A stretch of 44,534 nucleotides of DNA from Vectrevirus LI10P3: sequence record OZ035807.1. One strand, given 5' to 3'. Position 1 is the stretch's first letter. Every line of letters starts with the position of its first letter. Of this stretch, positions 14,591 through 40,216 are shown piece after piece. The notes beneath the pieces are model-generated. The model saw nothing but the letters and a program-made list of their open reading frames with translations, had not been told where the DNA came from and ran no database searches. Both the position numbers and the translations under genes were made by a program.

Positions 14591-14639
14591 CTACTACCGG
14601 TAACATTTCATTAACATAAAGTGTCTCACATGTGAGACT

Positions 14640-14664
14640 TATTTACCGGACACTATAGGATAGC
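14640..14664 (+). promoter_or_regulatory. phage RNAP promoter variant
   Basis: TATTTACCGGACACTATAGGATAG. Confidence 0.5.
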
Positions 14665-14825
14665 CGTCGGAGACGGGAAAGAAAAGGGAAGATAAAGGAT
14701 ATAAAAGGAAGTAATAGGTATTAAAGGCTATATAGGTTATCTAGGAATACCTATTACCTTCTTCCTTCCTCTTATTACTACTTAGAGGAAGGGCAGATCT
14801 AGGTTGTCTCACATGTGAGACTTCG

Positions 14826-14849
14826 TATTTACCGGACAGTATAGATAAG
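14826..14849 (+). promoter_or_regulatory. phage RNAP promoter variant
   Basis: TATTTACCGGACAGTATAGATAAG (two core substitutions). Confidence 0.4.
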
Positions 14850-14874
14850 ACTAACTTACTTTGGAGATTTAACC

Positions 14875-15003
14875 ATGCGTAACTTTGAGAAGATGACCCG
14901 TAAAGCTAACCGTTTTGACATGGAAGAAGGGCAGAAGAAAGGCAAGAAGCTGAATAAACCTGTCCGTGACCGTGCATCTAAACGCGCTGCGTGGGAGTTC
15001 TAA
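14875..15003 (+). CDS. T7 gp1.1-like small basic protein
   Basis: 42 aa MRNFEKMTRKANRF...KKLNKPVRDRASKRAAWEF resembles T7 gene 1.1 product as I recall it; GGAGA RBS. Confidence 0.5.
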   Translation: MRNFEKMTRKANRFDMEEGQKKGKKLNKPVRDRASKRAAWEF

Positions 15004-15006
15004 GTT

Positions 15007-16995
15007 ATGGCTATTATTCAGAATGTACCGTGTCCTGCTTGCCAAAAGAATGGACATGATATTACTGGCAACCATCTTATGATATTTGAGGATGGCGCTG
15101 GTTACTGTAACCGTGGTCACTTCCATGATAATGGGAAGCCTTATTACCATAAGCCAGAGGGTGGCATCGAGATAACCGAGTTACCTATTACTGGCAATAT
15201 CAAATATACACCTTCTCAATTCAAAGAAATGGAGAAGGAAGGGAAGATAAGCGACCCTAAGCTACGCGCCATCGCTCTTGGTGGTATGCGTATGAAAGAC
15301 CGTTGGGAGGTCATGAATGAGCAAGAAAGGGCAGACCAAGAAGCAGAGTGGAAACTTGATGTTGAATGGTTCCTCACGCTTAAGCGTAAGAACCTTGTAT
15401 CCCGTCACATTCGAGGTGACATCGCAGCAATGTACGATGTGCGCGTTGGACACGATGAAGAGGGAAGAGTCAACCGTCACTATTATCCACGATATGAAAA
15501 GGGTGTGCTTGTTGGGGCAAAATGCCGGACGTTGCCGAAGGATTTTAAGTTCGGACACCTAGGTAAACTCTTTGGTATGCAAGATCTTTTCGGTATGAAC
15601 ACTTTGTCTCACGTGTTAGACAAGGGGAGACGAAAGGATTGCTTGCTTATTGTAGGCGGTGAACTTGATGCACTAGCAGCGCAGCAGATGCTCCTTGATT
15701 CTGCCAAGGGTACTAAGTGGGAAGGCCAGCCATACCATGTATGGTCTGTCAACAAAGGCGAGTCTTGTCTTGAAGAGATAGTGCAAAACCGTGAGCATAT
15801 CGCCCAATTCAAGAAGATTATATGGGGTTTTGATGGAGATGAGGTAGGGCAGAAGCAGAATCAGCAAGCGGCTCGCCTGTTTCCTGGCAAATCCTATATC
15901 CTTGAATACCCCTCTGGTTGCAAAGATGCTAACAAGGCATTGATGGCTGGCAAGGCCAAAGAGTTTGTTGATGCATGGTTTAATGCCAAGTCATCTGATG
16001 AAGTCTTTGGTAGCCAGATTAAATCTATCGCCTCTCAAAGGGATAAGCTCAAGGCTGCACGTCCAGAGCAAGGACTATCATGGCCTTGGCCTAAGCTGAA
16101 CAAGGTAACGCTAGGTATTCGTAAGAACCAACTTATCATTGTAGGCGCAGGCTCTGGTGTAGGTAAGACTGAGTTCCTTCGTGAAGTAGTTAAGCACCTC
16201 ATTGAAGAACACGGTGAATCTGTAGGCATCATTTCTACAGAAGACCCGATGGTCAAGGTGTCCCGTGCTTTTATCGGCAAGTGGGTTGATAAGCGTATTG
16301 AGTTACCGCCAACCAACGACCCGAAAGAAGATGGATACCGTGAGGTGTTCGACTACACCGAGGAAGAGGCTAACGCCGCCATTGATTATGTAGCTGATAC
16401 AGGTAAGCTGTTTGTAGCTGACCTAGAGGGTGACTATTCGATGGAAAAGGTAGAGCAAACTTGCCTAGAGTTTGAGGCTATGGGCATTTCTAATATCATC
16501 ATTGATAACTTAACGGGGATTAAATTAGATGAGCGTGCTTTTGGTGGGAAGGTTGGTGCACTTGATGAATGCGTCAAGCGGATTGGTACTATCAAAGACC
16601 GACACCCGGTTACTATATTCCTTGTATCACACCTTACACGTCCTCCGGCAAACCGTACCCAACACGAAGAAGGTGGCGAAGTTATCCTTTCTGACTTCCG
16701 AGGCTCAGGCGCTATCGGATTCTGGGCATCTTACGCCTTGGGGATTGAGCGTAATACAAGAGCTGAAACGCTTGACGAAAGGACTACCACGTACATCTCA
16801 TGTGTCAAAGACCGCGACCAAGGTATCTACACTGGAACCAAGGTCATGCTTAAGGGTGACATTCAAACCGGACGTTTAATGGAACCACAAGCCCGTACTA
16901 AGTCATTTGATACAGGTGAAGCAAGGCAACAAGAAGTGCCGGATTTACCGGACACTATAGAAGAGACAACCTTTGACGATGAACAGGAGTTTTAA
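15007..16995 (+). CDS. DNA primase/helicase (T7 gp4-like)
   Basis: 662 aa; N-terminal zinc ribbon CPACQ...C..GH; Walker A GAGSGVGKTEF; DnaB-like C-terminal half. Confidence 0.9.
   Translation: MAIIQNVPCPACQKNGHDITGNHLMIFEDGAGYCNRGHFHDNGKPYYHKPEGGIEITELPITGNIKYTPSQFKEMEKEGKISDPKLRAIALGGMRMKDRWEVMNEQERADQEAEWKLDVEWFLTLKRKNLVSRHIRGDIAAMYDVRVGHDEEGRVNRHYYPRYEKGVLVGAKCRTLPKDFKFGHLGKLFGMQDLFGMNTLSHVLDKGRRKDCLLIVGGELDALAAQQMLLDSAKGTKWEGQPYHVWSVNKGESCLEEIVQNREHIAQFKKIIWGFDGDEVGQKQNQQAARLFPGKSYILEYPSGCKDANKALMAGKAKEFVDAWFNAKSSDEVFGSQIKSIASQRDKLKAARPEQGLSWPWPKLNKVTLGIRKNQLIIVGAGSGVGKTEFLREVVKHLIEEHGESVGIISTEDPMVKVSRAFIGKWVDKRIELPPTNDPKEDGYREVFDYTEEEANAAIDYVADTGKLFVADLEGDYSMEKVEQTCLEFEAMGISNIIIDNLTGIKLDERAFGGKVGALDECVKRIGTIKDRHPVTIFLVSHLTRPPANRTQHEEGGEVILSDFRGSGAIGFWASYALGIERNTRAETLDERTTTYISCVKDRDQGIYTGTKVMLKGDIQTGRLMEPQARTKSFDTGEARQQEVPDLPDTIEETTFDDEQEF
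16943..16965 (+). promoter_or_regulatory. phage RNAP promoter (inside 3' end of helicase gene)
   Basis: ATTTACCGGACACTATAGAAGAG. Confidence 0.6.
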
Positions 16996-17156
16996 TGGAA
17001 ATTATTAAACCAGTATTGAATATCGGTATTGAGATCCTATTCATGCTTGTGATCGCAGATTATGCTGCACGATATGGATTCAAGAAAGCTGTGAAACTTA
17101 TCGTTGCATCTGGTTTTCTTATGTCAATGTTCTTTATTGTAACACGCCTTATCTAG
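16995..17156 (+). CDS. small two-helix membrane protein
   Basis: 53-aa ORF MEIIKPVLNIGIEILFMLVIADYAARYGFKKAVKLIVASGFLMSMFFIVTRLI; start overlaps primase stop. Confidence 0.4.
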   Translation: MEIIKPVLNIGIEILFMLVIADYAARYGFKKAVKLIVASGFLMSMFFIVTRLI

Positions 17157-17228
17157 TGTATTTATCAGGGCTTGTCTCACATGTGAGACAGGCTCTTATT
17201 AAGTACATTAAATAACTGGAGATTGATT

Positions 17229-17912
17229 ATGTATAAATTAGTATTGAATGTAGGTGATTATGTTCGTAACATCAATGAAGCCTCACGTCGTTATCGTTGC
17301 CGTGGTGTAGTGGCTCGTGTAAGTGAGAACATGTATCATGTAGAATATGATGATGGTATTAAGGCTTCTTATCACAAGAAAACCGCACATAAATATCTTG
17401 AAAAGGTTGTAGAGGTAAACAATCAATGTAAGTGCATACATGATGAGGTTTGCGATAAATGTGCTCGCCAGATGCTTAAGAATTTCCTAGCCCCTCTTTA
17501 TTATGGTGCTGGTCCTCAAACACTAGCAGAGTACATGGCAGAAAAGAAAACCACACTCAAGAAAGAGCGTCGCAATGTAATCACTGGTAAGACTCAAAGT
17601 GAGATGATTAAGCAATGTGGCACTGCATTAGGTGTTACACAGTTCAATACTCGTGCATTGGGTAAATCCACAGGGCAAGCTATGGTGAAAATTGGTGAAG
17701 CTATGATGCAACCAAATGTACCTGTGCGAATCGTGGATATTGACCATGCAATCACAGAGCATGGTACACCACGCCGTGTAGCTAACAATCATTTTGCCGA
17801 CACTATAGAAGACATTATTCGTAAGCAAGGGTTGAAGGGTCTTCACATCTTAAATGGTGAAGAATTACTGTACCTACCTATCGTTACTGAAGAAACCTAC
17901 GTGAATATCTAA
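17229..17912 (+). CDS. hypothetical protein
   Basis: 227 aa from ATG 17229 with GGAGA RBS; Cys cluster CKCIHDEVCDKC; contains an internal phage promoter. Confidence 0.6.
   Translation: MYKLVLNVGDYVRNINEASRRYRCRGVVARVSENMYHVEYDDGIKASYHKKTAHKYLEKVVEVNNQCKCIHDEVCDKCARQMLKNFLAPLYYGAGPQTLAEYMAEKKTTLKKERRNVITGKTQSEMIKQCGTALGVTQFNTRALGKSTGQAMVKIGEAMMQPNVPVRIVDIDHAITEHGTPRRVANNHFADTIEDIIRKQGLKGLHILNGEELLYLPIVTEETYVNI
17791..17813 (+). promoter_or_regulatory. phage RNAP promoter (internal to CDS)
   Basis: ATTTTGCCGACACTATAGAAGAC. Confidence 0.45.
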
Positions 17913-17922
17913 GGAGTTAATC

Positions 17923-18141
17923 ATGACTAAAGTATTAATTTATATGCGTGGACCTCATAAATGCTATGCAGTTGTAGCACCAAATGGTGTTAAGCCCTAT
18001 AGTACTTCAAAAGGATTGGCATTAATAGGTGCTAGTAGTAGTGCAAGTTTCCAAATGGAACTTTTTGGTCATTGGACTGAATGGCAATTCCGTGAGGATT
18101 TTAAAGTCATTGGCAGCTTCATGGTGAAACATGCAGAATAA
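17923..18141 (+). CDS. hypothetical protein
   Basis: 72 aa, strong RBS TAAGGAG. Confidence 0.6.
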   Translation: MTKVLIYMRGPHKCYAVVAPNGVKPYSTSKGLALIGASSSASFQMELFGHWTEWQFREDFKVIGSFMVKHAE

Positions 18142-18307
18142 ACATAGTCTTAAAATGTTCGATGGTCATGAAGACCTGCAAGCCAAGATTACTAACCAAG
18201 CCTTCCTGTTCGCACAGTTAACTATGGCTGAAGCAAAGAAGAATAGCCTGACGCGTGAACAGGTTATCAAGGAAAGTGAAGTGAAACGTAAGATTCGCAG
18301 TCGATAA
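18131..18307 (+). CDS. hypothetical small protein
   Basis: 58-aa ORF overlapping upstream stop; no clear RBS. Confidence 0.25.
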   Translation: MQNKHSLKMFDGHEDLQAKITNQAFLFAQLTMAEAKKNSLTREQVIKESEVKRKIRSR

Positions 18308-18364
18308 GTCAAGGGTTGTCTCACACGTGAGACAGCCTTTCATCATATTGATTGGAGGTGCATT

Positions 18365-18472
18365 ATGCCACGTGATTATGATTCTGATTGGGATTTCCAA
18401 GATTCAATGAATCCAAAACCAGAACGTTCAGATGATTACTACGAAACAGAGGCAATGTATGAAGACTATTAA
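18365..18472 (+). CDS. hypothetical small acidic protein
   Basis: 35-aa ORF MPRDYDSDWDFQDS... with GGAGGTG RBS. Confidence 0.35.
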   Translation: MPRDYDSDWDFQDSMNPKPERSDDYYETEAMYEDY

Positions 18473-18677
18473 ATTAAGCAAGGTTTGCTCTTGCGGTAAA
18501 GGTTATCGCAGTCGTATTGATGGTAAGTGTGGGCATTGCAGGTCTAAGAAAGAGGCTGCTTTGTTTGATAAGTACCACAATGAATTAGCATATAACTATC
18601 CTCATCTAACACCTAATTCTTTATTAGGACTTGGTTATAGGGTTAAATACTTTGGAGCAATCTATGAAATCAATTGA
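18459..18677 (+). CDS. hypothetical zinc-ribbon protein
   Basis: 72 aa with CSCGKGYRSRIDGKCGHC motif; overlaps DNA polymerase start. Confidence 0.4.
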   Translation: MKTIKLSKVCSCGKGYRSRIDGKCGHCRSKKEAALFDKYHNELAYNYPHLTPNSLLGLGYRVKYFGAIYEIN

Positions 18678-21210
18678 TTGGAAGAAGGAGGCAGAAGGTC
18701 GTATCCTCGTGATGGATGCGGAAGCTAAAGGACTCCTTGACGCTATCCGATATGGACACCGTGAAGATGTGCATATCATTTGCTGCATGGATTTGCTTAC
18801 TACCGAGGAGTTTCTCTTCTTTGACCCGTATGAGATGCGTGACCCTGAAGCAAGAGAACGCCTGAAGGAATGGGAAGGTCATCAAGACGGAACCTTGGTT
18901 GATGGTGTTAACTTCCTGAAGCATTGTGAAGCTATTGTGTCACAGAACTTCCTAGGGTATGACGGACTTCTCTTTGAGAAAGCATTCCCTGATATTTGGA
19001 AAGGCTTTAACTATACCGAGAAGCGCGGTAAGGGCAGACTCCGTGCTGACCTGTGTCCGGTGCGAGTCATGGATACGCTGGTGATGAGTCGCCTGTTAAA
19101 CCCTGATAGACGCCTTCCTCCGCAAGCATATGCCAAAGGTATGGGTAACGTCGCCCCTCACTCAATTGAGGCGCACGGCATCCGTATAGGCCGCTATAAA
19201 CCGGAGAACGAGGACTGGTCTAAACTAACTGACCACATGGTTCACCGTGTACGTGAGGACGTGGCGATTGGTCGTGACTTGTTCCTCTGGCTCTTTAACG
19301 GGGAATGGATGGAGCACAAACGCCGTGGCGTGAATAAACGCACTGGCCTAGGTATTGAGACAGCCTTCCACATGGAGTCCATTGTGGCGCTGGAGATGAG
19401 CCGTCAGGCAGAGCGTGGATTCCGTCTGGATATTGACAAAGCACTAGCGCGATGCGAAGAACTGGACGCTAAGATTGATGAGACAGTCGCAGCGTTCCGC
19501 CCTCACATGCCTATGCGTATCAAGTCTAAACCTTTTAAACCGGAAGAAAAGAATGAAGTATGCCAACGCGCAAATGAGTATGGAGCTAGCAACAATATAC
19601 CTACTGTCCTTGACCCCTCACACTTTCTTCATGCCGAGAGACGAGGAGATCGCAAGACAGTATGGAGTGTCACTACTAAGTCTGGTGATTGGTCGGCTAG
19701 TGTCAAGAAAGACTTTCCTCACCTTAGAGGAAACCGTAATGACACGCCAAGCATCAAGTGGATTGGCGCTTACTCGCCTGTTACTTTCGAAGAGATTCCC
19801 TTGGGTAACAGGGATACAGTTAAGCAAGTGCTCTATGAGTATGGATGGAAAGGTGTTGAATTTAACGATACCGAGCAAGCTCATCTCGATGAGCACGGAG
19901 TGTTACCAAAACCTTGGAGTGGTAAGATAAATGAAAAGTCCCTCACTTTATGGCAAGAAAGAGCCGCACGTGAAGGTAAAACAGTCCCTGATTGGTGCTT
20001 GGGTATCGCTGCATGGTACATACTCGTATCCCGTCGTGGTCAGATACTCAACCGTGGTGACGTTGAAGCCTTCAACGAGAAGGGAACGTGGCCCTCGCAG
20101 GCTGGTGTACGAAAGTGTCGCGGCCTTGTACCTGTAGCATTCAACAAGGAGCTAGGAATCAATGCGCAGCAATACTACGAGAGGTACGGATGTTGGCCTA
20201 CGTCTGACAAAGATGACGGAGAGTGGCGTGTTCCAGCTGTTGCTATTAGTATTGGCACTTCTACGTTCCGTATGCGTCATCGTAACGTGGTTAATATTCC
20301 TGCCCGTGGCTTGTATCCTTTACGTGATTTATTCATAGCAGGGAAAGGCAAGCTAATCCTTGGTTGTGACGGTGCAGGTCTTGAACTGCGTGTCCTGTCT
20401 CACTTCATGAATGACCCTGAGTACCAAGAGATTGTACTGCACGGTGATATTCATACGCATAACCAGATGAAGGCTGGTCTTCCTAAGCGTGATATGGCGA
20501 AGACGTTTATATACGCCTTCCTCTATGGTTCTGGTATAGCCAACCTTGCAGCAGTCTGCGGTGTTACTGAGGAAGAAATGAAGGAAGTTGTGGCAAGATT
20601 CGAGATTGAACTACCGTCTCTTGCACGTCTTCGTGAGAATGTTATCGCACAAGGTAACAAGTTTGGCTACCTGCAAGCACCTGATGGGCATTGGGGTCGC
20701 ATCCGCATGTCTGGTGGTGAACTTAAAGAGCACACGATGCTTAACGTATTACTCCAGATGACTGGCTCTTTGTGTATGAAATATGCATTAGTCAAGGCAT
20801 TTGCAGTAATGCGCAAGGAAGGTGTAGCTTTGGATGCTATGGGAAATCCTTGTGGTGTGGCTAACGTGCATGATGAAATCCAGATGGAAGTTCCTGAAGA
20901 GGAGGTCTTGTATCTTAACTACGACCTACCTTTCACCTTAGATGGGTTCGAAACAGAGAAGGCTGCTGTGAAAGCAGTTTTCGATGCAGAGGAGAAACGT
21001 GTTCATGTGGATTCTGAAGGACGTATGTGGTCTGCTGCAAACCTCGTTAGCGTTGATGCTGATGCTGGTGTATTGCATTGCCAGCGCCGTTATCACCGTG
21101 CAGGTCATATCATTGCCGACGCCATGACTTGGGCAGGGCAGTATCTGAAGATGCGTTGCCCGATGGCAGGAGAATATAAGATTGGCGCAAGCTGGAAGGA
21201 AACACACTGA
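18664..21210 (+). CDS. DNA polymerase, family A (T7 gp5 / SP6-type)
   Basis: 848 aa from ATG 18664 (GGAGCAA RBS); exo motif VMDAEAKGL; pol motifs DGAGLELR, KTFIYAFLYGSG, VHDE. Confidence 0.9.
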   Translation: MKSIDWKKEAEGRILVMDAEAKGLLDAIRYGHREDVHIICCMDLLTTEEFLFFDPYEMRDPEARERLKEWEGHQDGTLVDGVNFLKHCEAIVSQNFLGYDGLLFEKAFPDIWKGFNYTEKRGKGRLRADLCPVRVMDTLVMSRLLNPDRRLPPQAYAKGMGNVAPHSIEAHGIRIGRYKPENEDWSKLTDHMVHRVREDVAIGRDLFLWLFNGEWMEHKRRGVNKRTGLGIETAFHMESIVALEMSRQAERGFRLDIDKALARCEELDAKIDETVAAFRPHMPMRIKSKPFKPEEKNEVCQRANEYGASNNIPTVLDPSHFLHAERRGDRKTVWSVTTKSGDWSASVKKDFPHLRGNRNDTPSIKWIGAYSPVTFEEIPLGNRDTVKQVLYEYGWKGVEFNDTEQAHLDEHGVLPKPWSGKINEKSLTLWQERAAREGKTVPDWCLGIAAWYILVSRRGQILNRGDVEAFNEKGTWPSQAGVRKCRGLVPVAFNKELGINAQQYYERYGCWPTSDKDDGEWRVPAVAISIGTSTFRMRHRNVVNIPARGLYPLRDLFIAGKGKLILGCDGAGLELRVLSHFMNDPEYQEIVLHGDIHTHNQMKAGLPKRDMAKTFIYAFLYGSGIANLAAVCGVTEEEMKEVVARFEIELPSLARLRENVIAQGNKFGYLQAPDGHWGRIRMSGGELKEHTMLNVLLQMTGSLCMKYALVKAFAVMRKEGVALDAMGNPCGVANVHDEIQMEVPEEEVLYLNYDLPFTLDGFETEKAAVKAVFDAEEKRVHVDSEGRMWSAANLVSVDADAGVLHCQRRYHRAGHIIADAMTWAGQYLKMRCPMAGEYKIGASWKETH

Positions 21211-21326
21211 TGGATAGGCTTGACATTATTTGCCTATTCTTCACTCTCTTTCTTACACTCCTTATGCTTGCTTGTTATGGGAGTCTGAGACTAGATATAC
21301 CTGATGAAGAAGAGGGTTACGACTAA
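21210..21326 (+). CDS. small hydrophobic peptide
   Basis: 38-aa ORF MDRLDIICLFFTLFLTLLMLACYG...; ATG overlaps DNA polymerase stop. Confidence 0.3.
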   Translation: MDRLDIICLFFTLFLTLLMLACYGSLRLDIPDEEEGYD

Positions 21327-21424
21327 TGCAAACTGCTTTTATTATTCTTGGTATCATATTATTTATGGTAGTACTCTGGGCCTTCTCTGGCATTGACCCG
21401 GATTGTGATGGTAACTACGACTGA
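21326..21424 (+). CDS. small hydrophobic peptide
   Basis: 32-aa ORF MQTAFIILGIILFMVVLWAF...; ATG overlaps previous stop (TAATG). Confidence 0.3.
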   Translation: MQTAFIILGIILFMVVLWAFSGIDPDCDGNYD

Positions 21425-21492
21425 GTTATACTCAAGGTCACTTACGAGTGGCCTTTATGGATAACTTATCCCTACTTATTTTGTCTAACATG

Positions 21493-21518
21493 ATTTACTG
21501 GACACTATAGAAGGAAAG
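21493..21518 (+). promoter_or_regulatory. phage RNAP promoter
   Basis: ATTTACTGGACACTATAGAAGGAAAG. Confidence 0.7.
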
Positions 21519-21579
21519 CCTAGACAATCTAGGTTTATAAGGTAGTATAGGTAATTAAGTAAATATAGGAGATATAAAC

Positions 21580-21957
21580 ATGTCTATGGTAACTACTCTG
21601 GTATTTGTAGCTCAATACTTTCGTGGTCTGGCTAATAAGTTCAAGTCCAAGGCTATCAAAGCTATTGAGTCTCGCATCGAGGCAGTACAGGCAGAGCAAG
21701 TTAAAGTTGAAGAACATCGTAGTTCTAAAATGATTGACTGCCATAACCGCTACTATGCATCTCGTGATGACCTTAATGCACGCCAAGTCAAAGAGGTTGA
21801 AGAGATGCTGGCACGTCACCAGCAAGAGCGCGACAGTCTGAAAGCTGAATTTGAAGAGAACAAGGCATCCATCGCCCTTGTACATCAAGCCGCATCTGAC
21901 AGCCTGAAGAAAGAGATTGTTATGCTTGAAATTGAGTTAGACAACCTGACCAAATAA
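21580..21957 (+). CDS. hypothetical coiled-coil protein
   Basis: 125 aa, RBS ATAGGAGA; heptad-like K/E-rich sequence. Confidence 0.55.
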   Translation: MSMVTTLVFVAQYFRGLANKFKSKAIKAIESRIEAVQAEQVKVEEHRSSKMIDCHNRYYASRDDLNARQVKEVEEMLARHQQERDSLKAEFEENKASIALVHQAASDSLKKEIVMLEIELDNLTK

Positions 21958-21979
21958 TTACTGGACACTATAGAACAAT
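21956..21979 (+). promoter_or_regulatory. phage RNAP promoter
   Basis: AATTACTGGACACTATAGAACAAT. Confidence 0.6.
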
Positions 21980-22119
21980 AGGTCGGCTTAGTTCGGCCTA
22001 TGATTGTAAAGTGTTGAACCTTATTGTGCATCTTGCACAACCCGATGCTATATCGGGCTTTCTAGTGAGTACATGCTTGTGCTCAGTACAAAGCTAACTG
22101 ACAATAGGAGACTAAATAA

Positions 22120-22926: not shown

Positions 22927-22935
22927 GGAGAAAGG

Positions 22936-23154
22936 ATGAAAGTACAAATCGTAACCCTGCACTGCAAGAAAGGTATCACAACGCTCGGAGGTAGCACTTT
23001 CCACTCTTTCTCCGAAGGGGAGATTTATGCTGACCTGCACTACATCTGGCGCGACGGACAGCACGTGGTGAACTACAGCGACCCAGCTACGGGGAAACGC
23101 CACGGCGTATCGCTTCCTGCGCATGACATTGCTCAGGTGAACACAGTTTTATAA
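22936..23154 (+). CDS. hypothetical protein
   Basis: 72 aa, RBS TAAGGAGAAAGG. Confidence 0.55.
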   Translation: MKVQIVTLHCKKGITTLGGSTFHSFSEGEIYADLHYIWRDGQHVVNYSDPATGKRHGVSLPAHDIAQVNTVL

Positions 23155-23186
23155 AGTCTCACATGTGAGACAAATCGGTGTCCGGT

Positions 23187-23210
23187 ATTTACTGGACACT
23201 ATAGAAGAGA
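23187..23210 (+). promoter_or_regulatory. phage RNAP promoter
   Basis: TATTTACTGGACACTATAGAAGAG, preceded by the GTCTCACATGTGAGAC palindrome. Confidence 0.7.
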
Positions 23211-29501: not shown

Positions 29502-29502
29502 T

Positions 29503-31973: not shown

Positions 31974-31977
31974 TTCA

Positions 31978-32004
31978 GTATTTACTGGACACTATAGAAG
32001 GGAG
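31978..32004 (+). promoter_or_regulatory. phage RNAP promoter upstream of capsid gene
   Basis: GTATTTACTGGACACTATAGAAGGGAG. Confidence 0.75.
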
Positions 32005-32052
32005 AAAAGTTCTCCCTAGTTATCAATTTGATTTATAAGGAGATTATAATAC

Positions 32053-33264: not shown

Positions 33265-33271
33265 TACCTAT

Positions 33272-33306
33272 GCCCTATCTACCTTGCGTAGGTAGGGTTC
33301 TTTTTG
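33272..33306 (+). terminator. late terminator hairpin after capsid gene
   Basis: GCCCTATCTACC-TTGCG-TAGGTAGGG stem-loop followed by TTCTTTTTGTT. Confidence 0.6.
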
Positions 33307-33318
33307 TTAGGAGGATTC

Positions 33319-34056
33319 ATGCCTGTTATTAAACAACAAAGTTACACTGGCTATACTGTCTCAGATGTAGCCTTTCAAGTGATTGATAGTAAGCTGGAGG
33401 CTGTTAACCTTTGTATGCGAGCCATTGGTCGTGAGGGTGTGGATTCTCTCGACTCAGGCGACCTTGATGCTGAAGATGCTAGCAAAATGATTGATATCGT
33501 CTCCCAACGTTTCCAATACAACAAAGGCGGTGGCTGGTGGTTCAATCGTGAACCTAACTGGCAGCTTGCACCAGACACGAACGGTGAGATTAACTTGCCT
33601 AATAACTGCCTAGCTGTATTGCAGTGCTACGCATTGGGTGAGAAGAAAGTGCCTATGACTATGCGTGCAGGTAAGCTCTACTCTACTTGGAGTCACACCT
33701 TTGATATGCGTAAGCATGTTAATGCTAATGGTATGATTCGTCTTACCTTACTCACCTTACTACCCTACGAGCATTTACCTACAAGTGTAATGCAGGCTAT
33801 TGCCTATCAAGCTGCTGTAGAGTTTATTGTGTCTAAGGATGCAGATCAGACTAAGCTAGCCACTGCGCAGCAGATAGCCACTCAGCTTCTTATGGATGTA
33901 CAATCTGAGCAAATGTCACAGAAGCGATTAAACATGCTGGTACATAACCCCACTCAGCGTCAGTTTGGTATCATGGCTGGTGGCTCTCAGAATGTACCTG
34001 CTTACTCTCATTCACCTTATGAGAGTTGGGCGCTCCGTCCGTGGGAGGATCGTTAA
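33319..34056 (+). CDS. tail tubular protein A (T7 gp11-like)
   Basis: 245 aa from ATG 33319 with AGGAGGA RBS; position after capsid. Confidence 0.7.
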   Translation: MPVIKQQSYTGYTVSDVAFQVIDSKLEAVNLCMRAIGREGVDSLDSGDLDAEDASKMIDIVSQRFQYNKGGGWWFNREPNWQLAPDTNGEINLPNNCLAVLQCYALGEKKVPMTMRAGKLYSTWSHTFDMRKHVNANGMIRLTLLTLLPYEHLPTSVMQAIAYQAAVEFIVSKDADQTKLATAQQIATQLLMDVQSEQMSQKRLNMLVHNPTQRQFGIMAGGSQNVPAYSHSPYESWALRPWEDR

Positions 34057-36458
34057 TGGAAGTACAAGGTTCATTAGGTAGACAAATCCAAGGGATTAGC
34101 CAGCAGCCGCCAGCGGTACGCTTGGATGGTCAGTGCACAGCTATGGTTAATATGATACCTGATGTAGTGAATGGTACTCAATCACGCATGGGTACAACTC
34201 ATATTGCAAAGATACTTGATGCTGGGACTGATGACATGGCTATTCATCATTATCGCAGAGGTGATGGTGATGAAGAGTATTTCTTCACGTTGAAGAAAGG
34301 ACAAGTTCCTGAGATATTTGATAAGTATGGGCGCAAATGTAATGTGACTTCACAAGATGCACCTATGACCTACCTCTCTGAGGTTGTTAATCCAAGGGAA
34401 GATGTACAATTCATGACGATAGCTGATGTTACTTTCATGCTTAATCGTAGGAAAGTAGTTAAAGCTAGTAACAGGAAGTCACCTAAAGTTGGAAACAAAG
34501 CCATTGTGTTTTGTGCGTATGGTCAATATGGTACATCTTATTCCATTGTAATTAATGGGACCAACGCTGCTAGTTTTAAAACACCGGATGGTGGAAGTGC
34601 AGACCATGTTGAACAAATTCGAACTGAACGTATCACTTCTGAATTGTACTCTAAGTTGCAGCAATGGAGCGGTGTGAGTGACTATGAAATACAAAGAGAC
34701 GGTACTAGTATATTTATCGAGAGACGGGATGGTGCTAGCTTTACAATAACAACCACCGATGGTGCAAAAGGTAAGGACTTAGTGGCTATCAAGAATAAAG
34801 TTAGCTCTACTGACCTACTCCCTTCTCGTGCGCCTGCTGGTTATAAAGTACAAGTGTGGCCTACTGGCAGCAAACCTGAGTCTCGTTACTGGCTGCAAGC
34901 TGAGCCTAAAGAGGGAAACCTTGTATCTTGGAAAGAAACAATAGCTGCCGATGTATTACTTGGGTTTGATAAAGGCACAATGCCTTATATCATTGAACGT
35001 ACAGGTATCGTAGACGGCATAGCTCAATTCAAGATAAGACAAGGCGATTGGGAAGATCGTAAAGTAGGAGATGACCTGACTAACCCTATGCCTTCTTTTA
35101 TTGATGAAGAAGTACCTCAGACAATAGGTGGGATGTTCATGGTGCAGAACCGCCTATGCTTTACAGCAGGTGAAGCTGTTATTGCTTCTCGTACATCATA
35201 CTTCTTCGATTTCTTTCGTTATACGGTTATCTCTGCATTGGCGACTGACCCATTTGATATTTTCTCAGATGCTAGTGAAGTCTACCAGCTAAAACATGCA
35301 GTGACCTTAGATGGCGCTACCGTGTTGTTCTCTGATAAGTCACAATTCATACTGCCAGGAGATAAGCCTTTAGAGAAGTCAAATGCATTGCTTAAGCCTG
35401 TTACAACATTTGAAGTGAACAATAAAGTGAAGCCAGTAGTAACTGGTGAATCGGTAATGTTTGCCACTAATGATGGTTCTTACTCTGGTGTACGAGAGTT
35501 CTATACAGACTCTTATAGTGACACTAAGAAGGCACAAGCAATCACAAGTCATGTGAATAAACTCATCGAAGGTAACATTACCAACATGGCAGCAAGCACC
35601 AATGTCAACAGGTTACTTGTCACTACCGATAAGTATCGTAACATAATCTACTGCTACGATTGGTTATGGCAAGGAACAGACCGTGTACAATCAGCATGGC
35701 ATGTGTGGAAGTGGCCTATAGGTACAAAGGTGCGAGGTATGTTTTATTCTGGCGAATTACTTTATCTGCTCCTTGAGAGAGGCAATGGTGTCTATCTGGA
35801 GAAGATGGATATGGGTGATGCATTAACCTATGGTTTAAATGATCGCATCCGAATGGATAGACAGGCAGAGTTAATCTTCCAGCATTTCAAAGCAGAAGAT
35901 GAATGGGTATCTGAACCACTCCCTTGGGTTCCTACTAACCCAGAACTTTTAGATTGCATCTTAATCGAGGGTTGGGATTCATATATTGGTGGTTCTTTCC
36001 TATTCAAATACAACCCCGGTGATAACACCTTGTCTACAACCTTTGATATGCATGATGATAGCCACGTAAAAGCGAAGGTTATTGTTGGTCAGATTTACCC
36101 TCAAGAGTTTGAACCAACACCTGTAGTTATCAGAGATAGGCAAGACCGTGTATCCTATATTGATGTACCTGTTGTGGGATTAGTTCACCTTAATCTTGAT
36201 ATGTATCCTGATTTCTCCGTGGAGGTTAAGAATGTGAAGAGTGGTAAAGTACGCAGGGTGCTAGCGTCAAACCGTATAGGTGGTGCTCTCAACAATACAG
36301 TAGGTTATGTTGAACCAAGAGAAGGTGTCTTCAGATTCCCACTGAGAGCTAAGAGTACGGATGCTGTTTATCGTATTATTGTAGAATCACCTCACACATT
36401 CCAGCTTCGTGATATTGAGTGGGAAGGGAGCTACAATCCAACCAAAAGGAGGGTCTAA
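34056..36458 (+). CDS. tail tubular protein B (T7 gp12-like)
   Basis: 800 aa; N-terminal GISQQP motif shared with T7 gp12 as I recall it; start overlaps upstream stop (TAATG). Confidence 0.8.
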   Translation: MEVQGSLGRQIQGISQQPPAVRLDGQCTAMVNMIPDVVNGTQSRMGTTHIAKILDAGTDDMAIHHYRRGDGDEEYFFTLKKGQVPEIFDKYGRKCNVTSQDAPMTYLSEVVNPREDVQFMTIADVTFMLNRRKVVKASNRKSPKVGNKAIVFCAYGQYGTSYSIVINGTNAASFKTPDGGSADHVEQIRTERITSELYSKLQQWSGVSDYEIQRDGTSIFIERRDGASFTITTTDGAKGKDLVAIKNKVSSTDLLPSRAPAGYKVQVWPTGSKPESRYWLQAEPKEGNLVSWKETIAADVLLGFDKGTMPYIIERTGIVDGIAQFKIRQGDWEDRKVGDDLTNPMPSFIDEEVPQTIGGMFMVQNRLCFTAGEAVIASRTSYFFDFFRYTVISALATDPFDIFSDASEVYQLKHAVTLDGATVLFSDKSQFILPGDKPLEKSNALLKPVTTFEVNNKVKPVVTGESVMFATNDGSYSGVREFYTDSYSDTKKAQAITSHVNKLIEGNITNMAASTNVNRLLVTTDKYRNIIYCYDWLWQGTDRVQSAWHVWKWPIGTKVRGMFYSGELLYLLLERGNGVYLEKMDMGDALTYGLNDRIRMDRQAELIFQHFKAEDEWVSEPLPWVPTNPELLDCILIEGWDSYIGGSFLFKYNPGDNTLSTTFDMHDDSHVKAKVIVGQIYPQEFEPTPVVIRDRQDRVSYIDVPVVGLVHLNLDMYPDFSVEVKNVKSGKVRRVLASNRIGGALNNTVGYVEPREGVFRFPLRAKSTDAVYRIIVESPHTFQLRDIEWEGSYNPTKRRV

Positions 36459-37204
36459 TGGCTATAGGTTCAGCCGTTATGGCTGGTATGTCTTCTATTG
36501 GTAGTATGTTTGCAGGTAGCGGTGCAGCAGCCGCTGTTGGTGGTACTGCCGCAGCAGCAGGAGGGACAGCCGCCGCAGGTGGCGGAGGTTTGCTTGGCTC
36601 CCTTGGTAGTTTCTTAGGAGGTTCTTCTGCTGGCTTCTCTAATGCAGGACTGCTTAGTGCAGGTATGCAAGGTCTTGGTCTTCTAGGCAATCTTTTTGGT
36701 GGAAGTGATGAAGCCAAAGCTATGAAGAAAGCTCAGGAGGAGCAATGGCGGCAGCAGTTAATTGCTACACAAGAAGCATATAAGACAGTAACAGATGCAG
36801 AACGCTCTGCTGCTAAACAGTATCATGCAGATGCAATCAGTAATCAGGCTTCACTGCTACAGCAAAGAGCACAGGTTGCATTACTTGCTGGTGCTACTGG
36901 TACTGGTGGTAACTCTGTGTCTTCTATGCTGAATGACTTAGCAGCAGAAGGCGGAAGGAACCAGAGTACAATTATCGATAACTATGAGAATCAGAAGATT
37001 AACTTCACCAACCAGCTTAAGTCCATCCAACGGGGTGGTCAGATGCAGATGCGTGAGTTTAAGAAACCTTCTGCCGTGAGCACCTTGGTGCAAGGTATAC
37101 CGAGTCTGGCATCTGCCTATGTAACAGGTAGTAAGTCCGGCATGGCTTTAGGTAAAGCTTTAACTGATTCTCGTACATATTCATCTGGAACAAGAGGTAT
37201 TTAA
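36458..37204 (+). CDS. internal virion protein (small, Gly/Ala-rich)
   Basis: 248 aa from ATG 36458 with AGGAGGG RBS; Gly/Ala-rich N-terminal half; first of three ejection-protein genes. Confidence 0.6.
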   Translation: MAIGSAVMAGMSSIGSMFAGSGAAAAVGGTAAAAGGTAAAGGGGLLGSLGSFLGGSSAGFSNAGLLSAGMQGLGLLGNLFGGSDEAKAMKKAQEEQWRQQLIATQEAYKTVTDAERSAAKQYHADAISNQASLLQQRAQVALLAGATGTGGNSVSSMLNDLAAEGGRNQSTIIDNYENQKINFTNQLKSIQRGGQMQMREFKKPSAVSTLVQGIPSLASAYVTGSKSGMALGKALTDSRTYSSGTRGI

Positions 37205-40152
37205 TGGCAATTGAGCGACAAGCAGTACAAGGTCTGCCACAAGTGCAGGCCACTTCTCCTAATGTCATGACCTTTGCACCTCAGCGAGTTGGAGGTGTGG
37301 AGGCTGGCGTAGCTTCTACCTCCGGTAGTCGATTTATCGAAGACCTTATTCGAGCAGCCAGTAGTGTAGCTGATGTAACCACTGGTATCCTTAATCAAAA
37401 GATTGAGGAAGATAAGGTTGTTCAAATGGAGCGGGCATATAACGGATTAATGCCTTCTGAGGATGCAACTCGTGGTGGCGCTCGTGCTAACATGCTTGTC
37501 AAAGCTCAACTGCTAGCTAATGATGAAGCAGCACGAATGAAAGACATGGCTACTCGTTTCCAAGGAACGGATGACGAGTGGACACAACTTATGGTTAATT
37601 CTCGTAATGAGATGCAGAATAAGCTGTTCCAGCAATACCCTGAGTTGCAAGGTGACAAAGATACTATGCGTATGGTCACTAATGTCTTCCAAGAACAGCA
37701 GCCTCAGATTTGGGCGACACGAACCCAGCATAAACTTGACCGTGAACAAGCAGACCGTGAGGATACCTTTGACGGGCGAGTGGCTTCTACTTGGGATTCT
37801 AATATTGACCCTGAAGCATCTGGCTATGCTTTACAGGAACGAATCCGCGAAGGTCTTACTCAAGGATTACTACCTGAACAGATGCACAAGAAGTTAGTCC
37901 AGCGAGCAATTTCACTTGCACAAGGCGGTGATGTTAGCATGGCTGAAGCCCTGAAGTATGTGAAGGACGATAAGGGTGTTTCTGTTTATGCTAAGAATCC
38001 ACAGCTTATCACAGCCATCACTAGTGGTAATGCAGTTTGGGCTAGGAATAATGTAGCTGATGTAACTCGTATGTCTTTCGAAGTTAAAGAATCCTACCTT
38101 GCAGGGGATTTAACTGATGAAGAATTGTTGGAACGAGCACAGCACATTAATAATCTGACAGGTAACTCTGTCTTCTCTAATCCAGAGCTAGAGGTACTGA
38201 TGCGCCAACGGGCTAAGCAGAATGCAGAGCTAGGTGCAATGCAGGATATGCGACGTGAGCTTTACTCCGACCGCCTGACTGGCTTCCAAGGTAAGACTGA
38301 TAAAGAGAAGAAGGCTTACATTGATGTTATCAAACAGGATAGCCAACTTTATGCAGACCAGCAAATCAAACAACGTGGCTTGGACCCTTATAGTCAAGAG
38401 GCTGAAGCTATTCGTGGTGCAGTGGAAGTGCAGCGCCTACAATTCATGAACTCCAAAGGCTTAGTGGATGATACCTTTGAGTCTCGTATCAAAGCCATGG
38501 AATCTATGCTATCTCCTGAGCACTTTGCCAAGGGCGAACCACAAGAGTTGATGACTATTCGCCAGTTGTGGGAACAGTTGCCAGAAGAGGGCCGAGGTGT
38601 CTTTGGTGACACGGTGAATGGCTACATGGATAACTACAACACTGCACTACAAATGGGAGAGACACCTTTGCAGTCTGCAAGGTTTGCGCGTGAAGCACAG
38701 CAGAAATTCTCTCGTACTGAGAAGGAAACCAAGAAGTTCAACTCAGCTATTGGAGATGCACTGGATGAGGTATCTGGTGCTGGCTGGTTCGATGGTAAAA
38801 CCGAAGTGTCAGACTTAGGTAAAGCTATTGCAGAAGAGGAGTTACGAGCTAAGGCTAATATGCTGTGGTCTAGTGGTATGCGTAACATGGATTCCATCAA
38901 GAAGGCTTTAATTACTTGGGGCAATAAACGCTACACTCAAACAGAGGATGCAAAGACTTCCGGTGGCTATTTCATTAAAGGTGATTACACTTCTGCATCT
39001 GATATGCTTATGTCAGTTGGGAAAGGCGTAAATCCTACCGATGTACCTCTGGCGCTTGGTAGGTATGTAGAAACACAGATGCCAGAATTGAAGAAGGAGC
39101 TTCAAGAGTGGGAAACTAAAGATGATATATACATTGATTACAATGAACAGAAAGGTACTTTCGTGATTCGTGCTGGTGCAGCAGGTCGCCCTCTTTCTGG
39201 AGTAATCCCTGTAACCTCTTTAGATACCACTTCACTACTAGATTCTGCCTATCAGAAGAAAGTAGAGGAACGAGATAAAGGCGAGTATGTTCACCCTTAT
39301 CGTACAGATATTGGTGCACAAGAGCCTATGCCAGCTAAACCAACTGCCAAAGATATTGGTAAATTTGGACTAGCTAACTTCCTCATGTCTTCTGCTTTTG
39401 CTTCTGGTGAGAATCTGCCTTCTAACTTCGAGATTAACTATCGAGGTAATATGCAACAATTCTATGACAAGCTAGCTATGGATGAGAATAAAGATAAAGT
39501 TGGCTTTAATAAGGCAACTGGAACCTTTACTCCATATAAAGATGCTCACGGTGAGTCTATCGGTTACGGTCATTTCTTAACGGAAGAAGAGAAGCGAAAC
39601 GGGTATATTAAGATTGGTGATGAACTAGTTCCCTATCGAGGGTCTATGTCTCAGCTTACAGAGAGCAAGGCTCGCGCTCTTATGGAGCAAGATGCCAAGA
39701 AGCATGTGCCTCCTACTCGTGACTGGAAGATTCCGTTTGACCAGATGCATCCTGCACAGCAACGTGGCTTGATGGATTTAACCTACAATTTAGGTAAAGG
39801 TGGAATCCAGAACTCACCGCGTGCTCTTGCTGCATTCAAAGCTGGTAAGCTTACGGAAGGCTTTATCGAAATGCTGGGCACTGCATCAAGTGAAGGTAAG
39901 CGTATCCCTGGTCTACTGAAGCGACGCGCTGAGGCATACAATATGGCATCTGCTGGTGGTGTGCCTAAGATTACCGAAGTGGAGACTCGTGAAGATGGCT
40001 CCATGTGGGTTAGGTTTGGTGGACCTATGCCAACAGGTTCTGTCTCGGCATGGACTCATAAACGTATTGGCGCGGATGGTTGGTATCAGGTTTATGAGGC
40101 TGCACCTACCAAGTTAGCTAAAGGTTCTAAGGTAGGTAAATTTAAGTTGTAG
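37204..40152 (+). CDS. internal virion protein with C-terminal lysozyme-like domain
   Basis: 982 aa; C-terminal TPYKDAHGESIGYGHFLT resembles the T4-lysozyme YKDTEGYYTIGIGH block; GLLKRRAEAYNM further downstream. Confidence 0.65.
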   Translation: MAIERQAVQGLPQVQATSPNVMTFAPQRVGGVEAGVASTSGSRFIEDLIRAASSVADVTTGILNQKIEEDKVVQMERAYNGLMPSEDATRGGARANMLVKAQLLANDEAARMKDMATRFQGTDDEWTQLMVNSRNEMQNKLFQQYPELQGDKDTMRMVTNVFQEQQPQIWATRTQHKLDREQADREDTFDGRVASTWDSNIDPEASGYALQERIREGLTQGLLPEQMHKKLVQRAISLAQGGDVSMAEALKYVKDDKGVSVYAKNPQLITAITSGNAVWARNNVADVTRMSFEVKESYLAGDLTDEELLERAQHINNLTGNSVFSNPELEVLMRQRAKQNAELGAMQDMRRELYSDRLTGFQGKTDKEKKAYIDVIKQDSQLYADQQIKQRGLDPYSQEAEAIRGAVEVQRLQFMNSKGLVDDTFESRIKAMESMLSPEHFAKGEPQELMTIRQLWEQLPEEGRGVFGDTVNGYMDNYNTALQMGETPLQSARFAREAQQKFSRTEKETKKFNSAIGDALDEVSGAGWFDGKTEVSDLGKAIAEEELRAKANMLWSSGMRNMDSIKKALITWGNKRYTQTEDAKTSGGYFIKGDYTSASDMLMSVGKGVNPTDVPLALGRYVETQMPELKKELQEWETKDDIYIDYNEQKGTFVIRAGAAGRPLSGVIPVTSLDTTSLLDSAYQKKVEERDKGEYVHPYRTDIGAQEPMPAKPTAKDIGKFGLANFLMSSAFASGENLPSNFEINYRGNMQQFYDKLAMDENKDKVGFNKATGTFTPYKDAHGESIGYGHFLTEEEKRNGYIKIGDELVPYRGSMSQLTESKARALMEQDAKKHVPPTRDWKIPFDQMHPAQQRGLMDLTYNLGKGGIQNSPRALAAFKAGKLTEGFIEMLGTASSEGKRIPGLLKRRAEAYNMASAGGVPKITEVETREDGSMWVRFGGPMPTGSVSAWTHKRIGADGWYQVYEAAPTKLAKGSKVGKFKL

Positions 40153-40216
40153 TATCTAACTCAAGGCTTGTCTCACATGTGAGACAGGTCTTTATGATAG
40201 GCACTATGGAGGAATT

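Follow-up and report, generated by a model that had tools for sequence, protein, structure and literature searches.

The textbook developmental programme of the T7-supergroup phages is run by an RNA polymerase switch; control in T7 is lysozyme-based, and the SP6-like phages are without lysozyme-based control. To our knowledge, no site-specific DNA-binding regulator is part of this programme. The window analysed here, the whole stretch of 44,534 nt in record OZ035807.1, is a K1E-like Vectrevirus genome of the SP6/K1E type that carries a repeated palindrome, and the candidate reader of this palindrome is a gp6-like protein (gp6 in K1E, gp7 in SP6). KorB and its operator OB belong to the IncP plasmid RK2, whereas the genome studied here is that of a lytic phage of the T7 supergroup, in which a single-subunit RNA polymerase carries out transcription. 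The OB half-site, TTTAGC/GCTAAA, is unlike the phage core and, in contrast to KorB, the gp6-like protein is predicted to have a coiled coil and a J-like domain, and neither a CTPase domain nor a ParA/IncC partner was found. Compared to the ParB-parS systems (Spo0J, P1 ParB, F SopB), the half-sites in the phage are set apart by 2-3 extra central bases, neither the CTPase domain nor ParA was found in the phage, and it is not obvious why a lytic phage would need partition. The T7 RNase III sites and terminators (TE, Tphi) are alike in being intergenic stem-loops past stop codons in a T7-supergroup genome, but the RNase III sites are about 20 bp long with internal loops whereas the phage stems are 13 bp with weak U-tracts, and a shared core, coding copies and bare copies are foreign to RNase III sites and intrinsic terminators. 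SV40 large T antigen combines a J domain with an origin-binding domain. The gp6-like protein differs from SV40/polyoma large T antigen and from the J-domain protein Rki of RB43 (PMC3486835) in the HPD motif (G-H-E), in domain order and in the DNA-binding fold, and it has no helicase domain. A full-text literature search, the scope of which excluded the original SP6 and K1-5 genome papers, gave no description of the palindrome or of a DNA-binding layer in SP6-like phages.

Copies of the palindrome in the genome

The original observation of a repeated palindrome was borne out: GTCTCACATGTGAGAC occurs exactly five times in the window (S1, S2, S4, S6 and S7 in Table 1) and not once in 100 dinucleotide-preserving shuffles, and when up to three mismatches are allowed there are 8 matches compared to 0.45 expected. 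Six perfect copies had been claimed; five are exact, whereas the sixth, read at 18317 as a perfect palindrome centred on CACGTG, is GTCTCACACGTGAGAC at 18318, in which both arms are perfect and the centre is AC. The imperfect copy in the primase gene was found as described and is one of two one-mismatch copies; the other (S0), close to the physical left end of the genome, was missed in the earlier inventory, in which the listed sites are real and the coordinates are right to within 1-2 nt. The placement given for the copies, after stop codons and/or 5' of phage promoters, was upheld, as S4 to S7 lie 2-18 nt 3' of stop codons and S1, S2 and S6 end 20, 23 and 33 nt, respectively, before the +1 of phage promoters, which were recognised in the window as being of the type TTTACYGGACASTATAG. 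Half of the sites are not close to promoters and the spacing of the rest varies. Relative to the start of the early promoter, the centre of S0 is at -55 to -110, and no helical phasing was seen between S0 and the early promoters.

Table 1. Positions of the palindrome copies and associated features in the window
Feature	Position	Strand	Remarks
S0, one-mismatch copy GTCTAACATGTGAGAC	9082..9097	.	34 nt 5' of the -35 of the first sigma70-type early promoter
Early promoter, sigma70-like, TTGACA-17-TACTAT	9132..9160	+	3' of S0; consensus match only
Candidate reader gene, K1E gp6/SP6 gp7 family, phrog_4571	10936..11859	+	just 5' of the RNA polymerase gene
Decayed ancestral copy CTGCTAACGTGCTGGAT	13335..13351	.	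within the RNA polymerase gene
Hairpin and T-run, terminator-like	14558..14581	+	directly 3' of the RNA polymerase gene, 5' of S1
S1, exact copy, bare core	14623..14638	.	end at -20 of the first phage promoter
Phage promoter TTTACCGGACACTATAG	14642..14658	+	+1 = 14658
S2, exact copy, bare core	14806..14821	.	end at -23 of the second phage promoter
Phage promoter TTTACCGGACAGTATAG	14828..14844	+	
S3, one-mismatch copy GTCTCACGTGTTAGAC	15606..15621	.	in the primase/helicase gene; frame G TCT CAC GTG TTA GAC = S-H-V-L-D
S4, exact core 17174-17189 capping a 13-bp hairpin	17167..17196	+	-20.3 kcal/mol
S5, core 18318-18333 with AC centre capping a 13-bp hairpin	18311..18340	+	-17.9 kcal/mol
S6, exact copy, bare core	23156..23171	.	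2 nt past a stop codon; end at -33 of a phage promoter
Phage promoter TTTACTGGACACTATAG	23188..23204	+	
S7, exact core 40170-40185 capping a 13-bp hairpin	40163..40192	+	-18 kcal/mol; between two large internal-virion-protein genes

Conservation in related phages

Conservation in relatives had been proposed as a check, and three lineages of SP6-like phages were found to have this element in the same places. The palindrome that ranks first among the repeated ones is of this family and lies at orthologous slots in 12 of 12 SP6-like genomes compared, drawn from the Molineuxvirinae, the Colwellvirinae and Gajwadongvirus, and an ortholog of S0 is also present in all 12. The relatives carry 5-11 copies each and the window carries 8. 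Since these slots are orthologous across subfamilies at 30-45% protein identity, the sites are ancient and not recently spread. In T7 both the palindrome family and the gp6-like gene are absent. Within any one genome every copy has one core and the cores differ across lineages (GTCTCAC, GTCCAAC, GTCTAAC, GTCTAGT, GTCTACA and GTTTCAC), with a non-cognate GTCCAAC core kept at S7 of ACG-C91 alongside a protein of the K type described below. Palindromy reaches the centre (R8/Y9 or A-S-T), asymmetric centres are seen both ways round (ACT and AGT; AC and GT), and the centre is 2 or 3 nt long, differing even inside a single genome. One-sided T.G asymmetries, mostly in one orientation, are seen in SP6 and L377. 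A fork polarity, in which the T.G wobble is always on the lagging-strand template, was considered from the inverted left-end copy of SP6 and was not sustained, as the asymmetry at S1 of K22 runs the other way and the S0 copies of K44 and POP72 are in the + orientation; the 6:1 split of orientations in SP6 is by itself not significant. The decayed copy in the RNA polymerase gene of the window is intact in POP72, BD5, Nifs112/VyarbaL, L378 and L379.

Copies inside coding sequence are conserved in the RNA polymerase, primase and ligase genes, and they match the core type of the genome even where this alters the protein. Thus, the primase of Vectrevirus and the RNA polymerase of Eracentumvirus have His in place of Asn, following the core type, and the peptide S-[N/H]-V-L-D is found only where the DNA motif is present. 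A perfect 3' arm in S3 would make a TGA stop codon. The sites, including the copy in the primase gene, are probably functional.

The candidate reader protein

Every genome that bears the motif has the gp6-like gene, the family of which has roughly 450 members. The conserved start of the gene, MTTEN, is the ATG at 10936, and residues are numbered here from the GTG at 10927. The protein is predicted to consist of a ParB/KorB-like helix-turn-helix (HTH) domain (13-125), an acidic linker, a coiled coil (208-248) and a J-like domain (255-309), and the predicted recognition helix is residues 64-77, KAQCYKLMSVARVF. In the model the N-terminal domain looks like the DNA-binding domains of ParB and KorB; a Foldseek search of the model against the PDB gave no significant match. 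The ParB/Srx-type CTPase domain with its GxxRxxA box was not found: the model has only a single long helix before the HTH, and there was no ParBc match in Pfam. No ParA-type ATPase was found in the ORFs of the window, in the gene annotation of K1E and SP6 or in the ortholog families. Two family members are named DUF3102 domain-containing in UniRef; the N-domain of the window had no Pfam match to DUF3102 (PF11300) at E up to 1, and L101, L183 and L021 score 12.8-16.7 bits against it, which is under the Pfam gathering threshold of 24.4. The C-terminal domain has the helical fold of a J domain in the model. The HPD tripeptide between helices II and III is missing, the family having G-H-E, H-D-A or H-K-D there, which makes it similar to Tim16 and other J-like proteins.

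Other candidates for the reader were rejected. The phage RNA polymerase does not fit, as K1E and the Erwinia phages have the same core but different promoters, and SP6 and K44 have the same promoters but different cores. A metallophosphoesterase with an extra N-terminal domain, annotated as HTH in Nifs112, found no support.

Correspondence between helix and core

The core type tracks residues 66 and 69 (Q66 and K69 in the window) of one helix in the gp6-like protein. The rule is that K or R at residue 69 goes with C5:G12 and N or H with A5:T12, and the correspondence between helix type and core type is perfect over about 45 distinct loci, although in the SP6-like phages this covariation is partly confounded by common ancestry and truly independent cases are few. 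The helix KKAQxYKLM is found with the core GTCTCAC, KKAQCYNLM with GTCCAAC, KKAWAYRLM with GTCTAGT, KKAYVYRLM with GTCTACA, and the H-type helix with GTCTAAC. When unrelated contigs were picked solely for the palindrome (L101, L183, L021 and L206, the last with 4 copies), the palindrome was inside or abutting a gene with the same N-terminal domain and the K/R-versus-N rule held. Some of the E-values among the independent cases are weak, being 0.02 for L021, 0.05 for L206 and 0.18 for L312. ParB and ParA labels for genes of L206 were dropped, as Pfam gave no family. In a prospective test, all four family members that had been selected by helix type before the DNA was read obeyed the rule, and one of them has the canonical parS half-site GTTTCAC. 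The 18-mer TGTCTCACATGTGAGACA recurs in some bacterial genomes without such a gene close by, and a scan of bacterial genomes for it gave chiefly unrelated repeats and one weak extra case, L312. In a blind column-partition test of 27 ortholog families no single protein stood out, because the signal is drowned by common descent and by the divergent gp35/gp36 module; K69 was present as a column in this test and was unflagged under a strict filter. The substitutions A87S and D117T, common to PM116 and Alpheus, were uninformative as markers of centre length, as similar convergent columns occur in many proteins. At the level of sequence, these data, which include 4-5 unrelated contigs, point to a specificity link between helix residues 66 and 69 of the gp6-like protein and positions 5-7 of the palindrome core.

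RNA hairpins at the palindromes

At S4, S5 and S7 the palindrome caps a 13-bp hairpin on the + strand, the outer 7 pairs of which covary. In the alignment of these stems 98.6% of the cells are paired compared to 85.9% in shuffles, 43 cells compared to 13 in shuffles are changed on both sides, and all slid registers are at most 51% paired. Many of the G.U pairs are valid on the + strand only, and the folding energies are -18 to -20 kcal/mol on the + strand versus -10 to -12 kcal/mol on the - strand. S0, S1, S2 and S6 are without an extended stem and reach only -7 to -9 kcal/mol, and a stable G+C-rich terminator hairpin is found at S4, S5 and S7 only, and not at S0, S1, S2, S3 and S6. The stems are not followed by the U run of a terminator, the tails UUAUUAAG, CAUCAUAU and UAUGAUAG having 3-4 U in 8 nt. 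A terminator scan flagged only the bare cores S1 and S2, where T-rich promoter DNA happens to come next. A T7-type RNase III site, with about 20 bp of double-stranded RNA, was not found at the palindromes, where the maximum is 13 contiguous pairs and a tetraloop, and an Rfam scan of the window gave no match at the motif. Elsewhere in the window, 10574-10628 is a better candidate for an RNase III site. An RNA role is likely at S4, S5 and S7 as an additional layer, but it is not taken to explain the core.

Probable operators and alternative explanations

The predicted ParB/KorB-like domain, the tracking of the core by the helix and the joint absence from T7 argue that the palindromes are most likely duplex-DNA operators, similar to parS and OB, of the early gp6-like protein, and we give this reading a good, though not overwhelming, probability. 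The palindrome had been proposed to be an operator, an RNA processing signal or a terminator; comparison of sequences strongly supports the operator, whereas termination or processing holds in part, for 17174, 18318 and 40170 only. The gp6-like protein, presumably made from the first DNA entering the cell, probably binds as a symmetric dimer via its putative ParB/KorB-type HTH. Each recognition helix would read one half-site, (T)GTCTCAC(R), with K69 reading the C5:G12 pair and Q66 the inner positions 6-7. The difference between centres of 2 and 3 nt is awkward for a rigid dimer. Of the sites that would be bound, one is 5' of the early host-type promoters, one is in the primase gene, three lie against the 5' edge of phage promoters at the early/middle boundary, and three also tip intergenic RNA hairpins. 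Above all it is the regulatory consequence that we infer: the protein would be a global regulator or insulator that binds DNA in the manner of KorB, and it may be linked to DnaK through its J-like C-terminal domain. We put forward only tentatively, as possible but doubtful, a wider version of this, namely a KorB-like genome-wide system in which a ParB-type HTH joined to a J-like domain would act on 8-10 parS-like sites through a simple, re-programmable code and replace the T7-style lysozyme control. In its code residue 69 would specify G:C when K or R and A:T when N or H, and residue 66 (Q, W or Y) the inner bases; using host DnaK or steric roadblocks, it would set when the phage RNA polymerase takes over from that of the host, when origins fire or when genome entry is completed.

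If the core were primarily an RNA hairpin, it would terminate or pause the phage RNA polymerase, protect 3' ends or direct processing, and would be read by a sequence-specific RNA-binding factor. The covarying hairpins at S4, S5 and S7 with their greater stability on the + strand fit this, as do the GenBank record of PM116, in which the S4 ortholog is annotated as a Rho-independent terminator, the variable centre length, which suits a loop, and the T.G asymmetries of SP6 and L377, which resemble + strand wobble pairs. We consider it unlikely, however, because four copies lack an extended stem, because two copies are in essential genes and copies are kept in the genes for RNA polymerase, primase and ligase, in which ending or cutting the transcript would do harm, and because asymmetric centres occur in both orientations, the U-tracts are weak and Rfam has no match. 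Moreover, the central R/Y symmetry is kept although it is not required of a loop, and a hairpin demands structure and not a common sequence whose copies change together and follow an HTH helix; the earlier argument that identical sequence exceeds what a hairpin needs therefore stands. A role in replication or genome entry, in which the gp6-like protein, or the primase through the outer 5'-GTC triplets, would use the palindromes as origin-like sites or priming sites to organise initiation or the resumption of DNA entry, with the J-like domain recruiting DnaK by analogy with SV40 large T antigen, is a variant of the operator explanation rather than fully separate, with the same binding and another consequence. 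It is improbable in our judgement, since the outer GTC is invariant whereas it is the inner positions that co-vary with the HTH, S7 and S0 are distant from the presumed origin, and the HPD for activation of Hsp70 is replaced by G-H-E. An identical sequence at many intergenic sites could also come from a short repeat, either mobile or a recombination linker (similar to REP/MITE elements or the target of a homing endonuclease), that has no trans-acting reader and owes its uniformity to recent spread or gene conversion, and the SP6-like genomes are indeed mosaic, with the gp35/gp36 module swapped beside S7 and HNH genes inserted close to S1 in PM116 and Nifs112. But no transposase or RAYT gene is present, 16 bp is too short for efficient conversion, and the helix-core code and the coding copies are left unexplained, which makes this origin very improbable.

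Significance

If the palindromes are operators, the SP6/K1E branch gains a site-specific DNA-binding layer on top of its RNA polymerases, the conserved early gene SP6 gp7/K1E gp6 gains a testable role, and conserved palindromes, some of which are now annotated as terminators, are explained. The protein-operator pairs would be compact, naturally orthogonal and have a readable code, and could be used beside the K1E and SP6 RNA polymerases in synthetic biology. Genome engineers should heed the sites, including those in primase genes. It is our conjecture that the palindromes might be mistaken for promoters by repeat-based promoter finders (compare PMC5014404). The gp7/gp6 gene is found in hundreds of therapeutic-candidate coliphages and Klebsiella, Salmonella, Vibrio and Pseudomonas phages.

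Repeated palindromes in the window and in related phages

The window genome belongs to the SP6 supergroup, as a Vectrevirus similar to K1E and K1-5, and is circularly permuted relative to K1E; Escherichia phage vB-Eco-KMB14 is 97% identical to it over 5 kb. The repeated palindrome of the original prediction was confirmed as an observation, with five exact copies of GTCTCACATGTGAGAC in the window and none in 100 shuffles. The copy that had been read at 18317 with a CACGTG centre has an AC centre, the imperfect copy in the primase gene was borne out, and the copy at 9082 had been overlooked. The intergenic placement that had been described also stands: S4 to S7 lie 2-18 nt past stop codons, and S1, S2 and S6 end 20, 23 and 33 nt, respectively, before the +1 of a phage promoter, the promoters mapped in the window being of the TTTACYGGACASTATAG type.

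Palindrome sites (S0 to S7) and other features of the window
Feature	Position	Description
S0	9082	One mismatch; genome left end, upstream of early host-type promoters
S1	14623	Exact; past the RNA polymerase gene and its terminator, phage promoter after it
S2	14806	Exact; placed as S1, phage promoter after it
S3	15606	One mismatch; primase codon ~200
S4	17174	Exact; 3' of primase operon
S5	18318	Arms perfect; ahead of DNA polymerase gene
S6	23156	Exact; ahead of exonuclease-operon promoter
S7	40170	Exact; between two large internal-virion-protein genes
Decayed copy	13335	RNA polymerase gene
Putative reader-protein gene	10927/10936-11859	K1E gp6, SP6 gp7, phrog_4571
Promoter-like TTTAGCTGACACTATAA, then hairpin	10560-10639	SP6-type; long irregular hairpin at 10574-10628
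Hairpin CCGUCGGAGACGG	14664-14676	Small; opens first phage-promoter transcript
gp35, gp36	37204-40152, 40217-43414	K1E names
K1E position 1	about 8450	
Physical genome ends, terminal repeat	near 8300-8700	Roughly 630 bp left of S0

The element is conserved in relatives. Twelve genomes were compared, namely Vectrevirus (the window and K1E), Zindervirus SP6, Axomammavirus POP72, Acadevirus PM116, the unclassified Molineuxvirinae Klebsiella phages K44PH129C1 and K22PH164C1, Eracentumvirus VyarbaL and Nifs112, the unclassified Vibrio phage BD5, Colwellvirinae Alpheus and Gajwadongvirus ECBP5, and a de novo repeated-palindrome scan put the same family top in all 12, in orthologous slots. All copies in the same genome carry a single core (the 7-nt half-site), which differs between lineages: GTCTCAC in Vectrevirus, Eracentumvirus and Alpheus, GTCCAAC in K44, K22, POP72 and PM116, GTCTAAC in BD5, GTCTAAC with a GTTGGAC right arm in SP6, and GTCTAGT in ECBP5. 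The outer GTC...GAC is kept in 12 of 12 genomes, and position 3 varies to T in two relatives examined later, contigs L377 and L379 (Vibrio phage 15E36.1). The centre between the half-sites is R-Y, or A-S-T when 3 nt long, and its length varies even inside one genome. The Vectreviruses ACG-C91 (31564) and L120 (11357) combine a K-type reader protein (see below) and K1E-type flanks with a GTCCAAC core that is non-cognate and confined to S7, and thus two core types can coexist in one genome; the ACG-C91 site suggests that structure matters most at the S7 slot. Identity to the SP6 counterparts is only 42% for K1E gp35 and 39% for gp36, in contrast to 64-95% for most other genes, and the two genes look like a swapped module with the S7 palindrome exactly between them.

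An early protein as the candidate reader

When viral contigs were scanned for the exact palindrome, unrelated high-GC contigs were also returned. In the actinomycete contig L206 (Bailinhaonella), a 334-aa gene has four copies of TGTCTCACGCGTGAGACA adjoining its stop codon, and when its protein was searched against all 1,314 ORFs from the 12 phage genomes the best matches all belonged to one family, the conserved early protein encoded directly upstream of the RNA polymerase gene (hhalign: 60 columns, 33% identity, HTH-like segment, E = 1e-3). An HMM of the N-terminal domain of this putative reader protein detected N-domain-only homologs in L101 (6e-8), L183 (9e-6) and L021 (0.02), three non-SP6-like contigs fetched solely via the palindrome. 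In these three the palindrome lies inside the homolog gene itself; its place with respect to the HTH varies, and its reading frame differs from that of the phage coding copies. A copy within the reader gene is also present in ECBP5 (1372) and L379 (8705), and this arrangement in all five hints at autoregulation. T7 lacks both the reader domain and any repeated palindrome family.

An AF2 model built from an 86-sequence alignment has pLDDT >90 at residues 13-125 and 255-309 (numbered from the GTG at 10927), with moderate fold scores. It predicts a helix-turn-helix (helix 49-60, turn G-I-K, helix 64-77), a disordered acidic linker, a coiled coil at 208-248 and a J-like domain with G-H-E in place of the HPD motif; neither a ParB CTPase domain nor ParA is present. 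The core covaries with residues 66 and 69 of the helix K64-A-Q-C-Y-K-L-M-S-V-A-R-V-F77; this covariation is partly phylogenetic inside the SP6-like clade, and independent cases are few and some weak. Classically, Lys or Arg prefers a G:C pair and Asn an A:T pair. In a prospective test, four more family members were picked by helix type alone and their contigs were fetched afterwards, and the rule held in all four. The half-site of L379 is the canonical parS half-site.

Helix residues 66 and 69 and the palindrome core
Residues 66, 69	Core	Loci
Q, K	GTCTCAC	16 distinct loci, five lineages (Vectrevirus, Eracentumvirus, Alpheus-like, L149, L155)
Q, N	GTCCAAC	16 loci, L101 and L021 among them
Q, N	GTCTAAC	BD5
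W, R	GTCTAGT	3 loci
Y, R	GTCTACA	3 loci; 11 copies in L277
Q, H	GTCTAAC	SP6
H, R	GTCTCAC	L206
Y, K	GTCTCAC	L183
Q, K	GTCTCAC	L380 (prospective)
Q, K, with Y68S	GTTTCAC-(2-3 nt)-GTGAAAC	L379 (prospective), 6 sites
Q, R	GT(T/C)CCAC...GTGGGAC	L377 (prospective)
Q, H	GTCTAAC	L378 (prospective), 7 sites

RNA hairpins and probable duplex operators

The copies are of two kinds. At S4, S5 and S7 the cores are flanked by UU...AG and five more pairs, whose sequence differs between phages with pairing kept: in an alignment of 27 distinct sites 98.6% of cells are paired as compared to 85.9% when shuffled (0 of 500 shuffles reach 98.6%), 43 cells have changed on both sides as compared to 13 in shuffles, and slid registers are all at or below 51% paired. 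The stems hold many G.U and U.G pairs, which are A.C mismatches on the opposite strand, with folding energies of -18 to -20 kcal/mol for the + strand versus -10 to -12 for the - strand. Covariation, G.U pairs and + strand folding thus establish S4, S5 and S7 as real + strand RNA hairpins, which probably add an RNA-level function there; the PM116 record labels its S4 a Rho-independent terminator, and the U-tracts are weak. S0, S1, S2 and S6 are bare cores (-7 to -9 kcal/mol) with A/T-rich, non-complementary flanks.

RNA structure alone fails to explain the conserved core, because all copies change in concert, because asymmetric centres occur in both orientations with R/Y symmetry kept at the centre, and because copies persist within genes (primase, RNA polymerase at codon ~471, ligase and others). 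Every coding copy in the SP6-like phages is in the frame G TCN MAC GTG TTR GAC, where the Asn/His codon and the third position of the Ser codon vary with the core type of the genome, Asn having changed to His in Vectrevirus primase and independently in Eracentumvirus RNA polymerase. The encoded peptide is part of a variable primase loop and is present only where the DNA motif is present, and the primase copy is imperfect because a perfect K1E-type 3' arm would make an in-frame TGA stop. The evidence best supports viewing the palindromes as parS/OB-like duplex operators for the early protein, and from sequence and model this protein is likely to bind them. A symmetric dimer does not explain the one-sided T.G asymmetry at position 3:14 in L377 (4202, 7810, 8211) and 4:13 at six SP6 sites, mostly in one orientation; it may stem from C-to-T mutation biased to one strand or from a hairpin role on the + strand.

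What such binding would serve is less certain. The layout of promoter-abutting, promoter-distant and intragenic copies is most like the KorB regulon of RK2, and from this resemblance the reader could act at the early/middle boundary as a KorB-like global regulator or insulator whose J-like domain may engage DnaK; we hold this regulatory role only tentatively. The main alternative is that the same binding serves replication or genome entry; a T7-origin-like promoter and an AT-rich region lie between S1 and S2.

Other hairpins and palindromes

The small hairpin CCGUCGGAGACGG is kept in K1E, SP6, K44 and PM116 and holds its own GTC...GAC mini-palindrome. The hairpin at 10574-10628 (about -30 kcal/mol, z -3.7; sub-threshold Rfam miRNA matches on both strands) resembles a T7-style RNase III site; it lies between the ocr-like and gp6-like genes, in the early transcript.

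The 18-mer TGTCTCACRYGTGAGACA occurs on many contigs of single bacterial genomes (L286-L365) with no gp6N-type gene nearby, examples being the Bacteroidaceae MAGs RGIG4467, RGIG4948 and RUI084, Tropicimonas marinistellae SF-16, Pseudoalteromonas rubra, Pseudoalteromonas ardens and several Streptomyces; these could form a repeat family of their own, or belong to a regulon with its reader encoded elsewhere. In L209, a 129-kb high-GC viral contig, the 18-mer occurs twice at 960-1030, tipping long perfect palindromes cgccgtctggcg...cgccagacggcg. The 'phage promoters' reported for Aeromonas phage Ahp1 from the PHIRE program, TGGCTGCACTTGCAGATGGT and similar (PMC5014404), have dyad symmetry (CTGCA..TGCAG) and could represent a further operator family mistaken for promoters.
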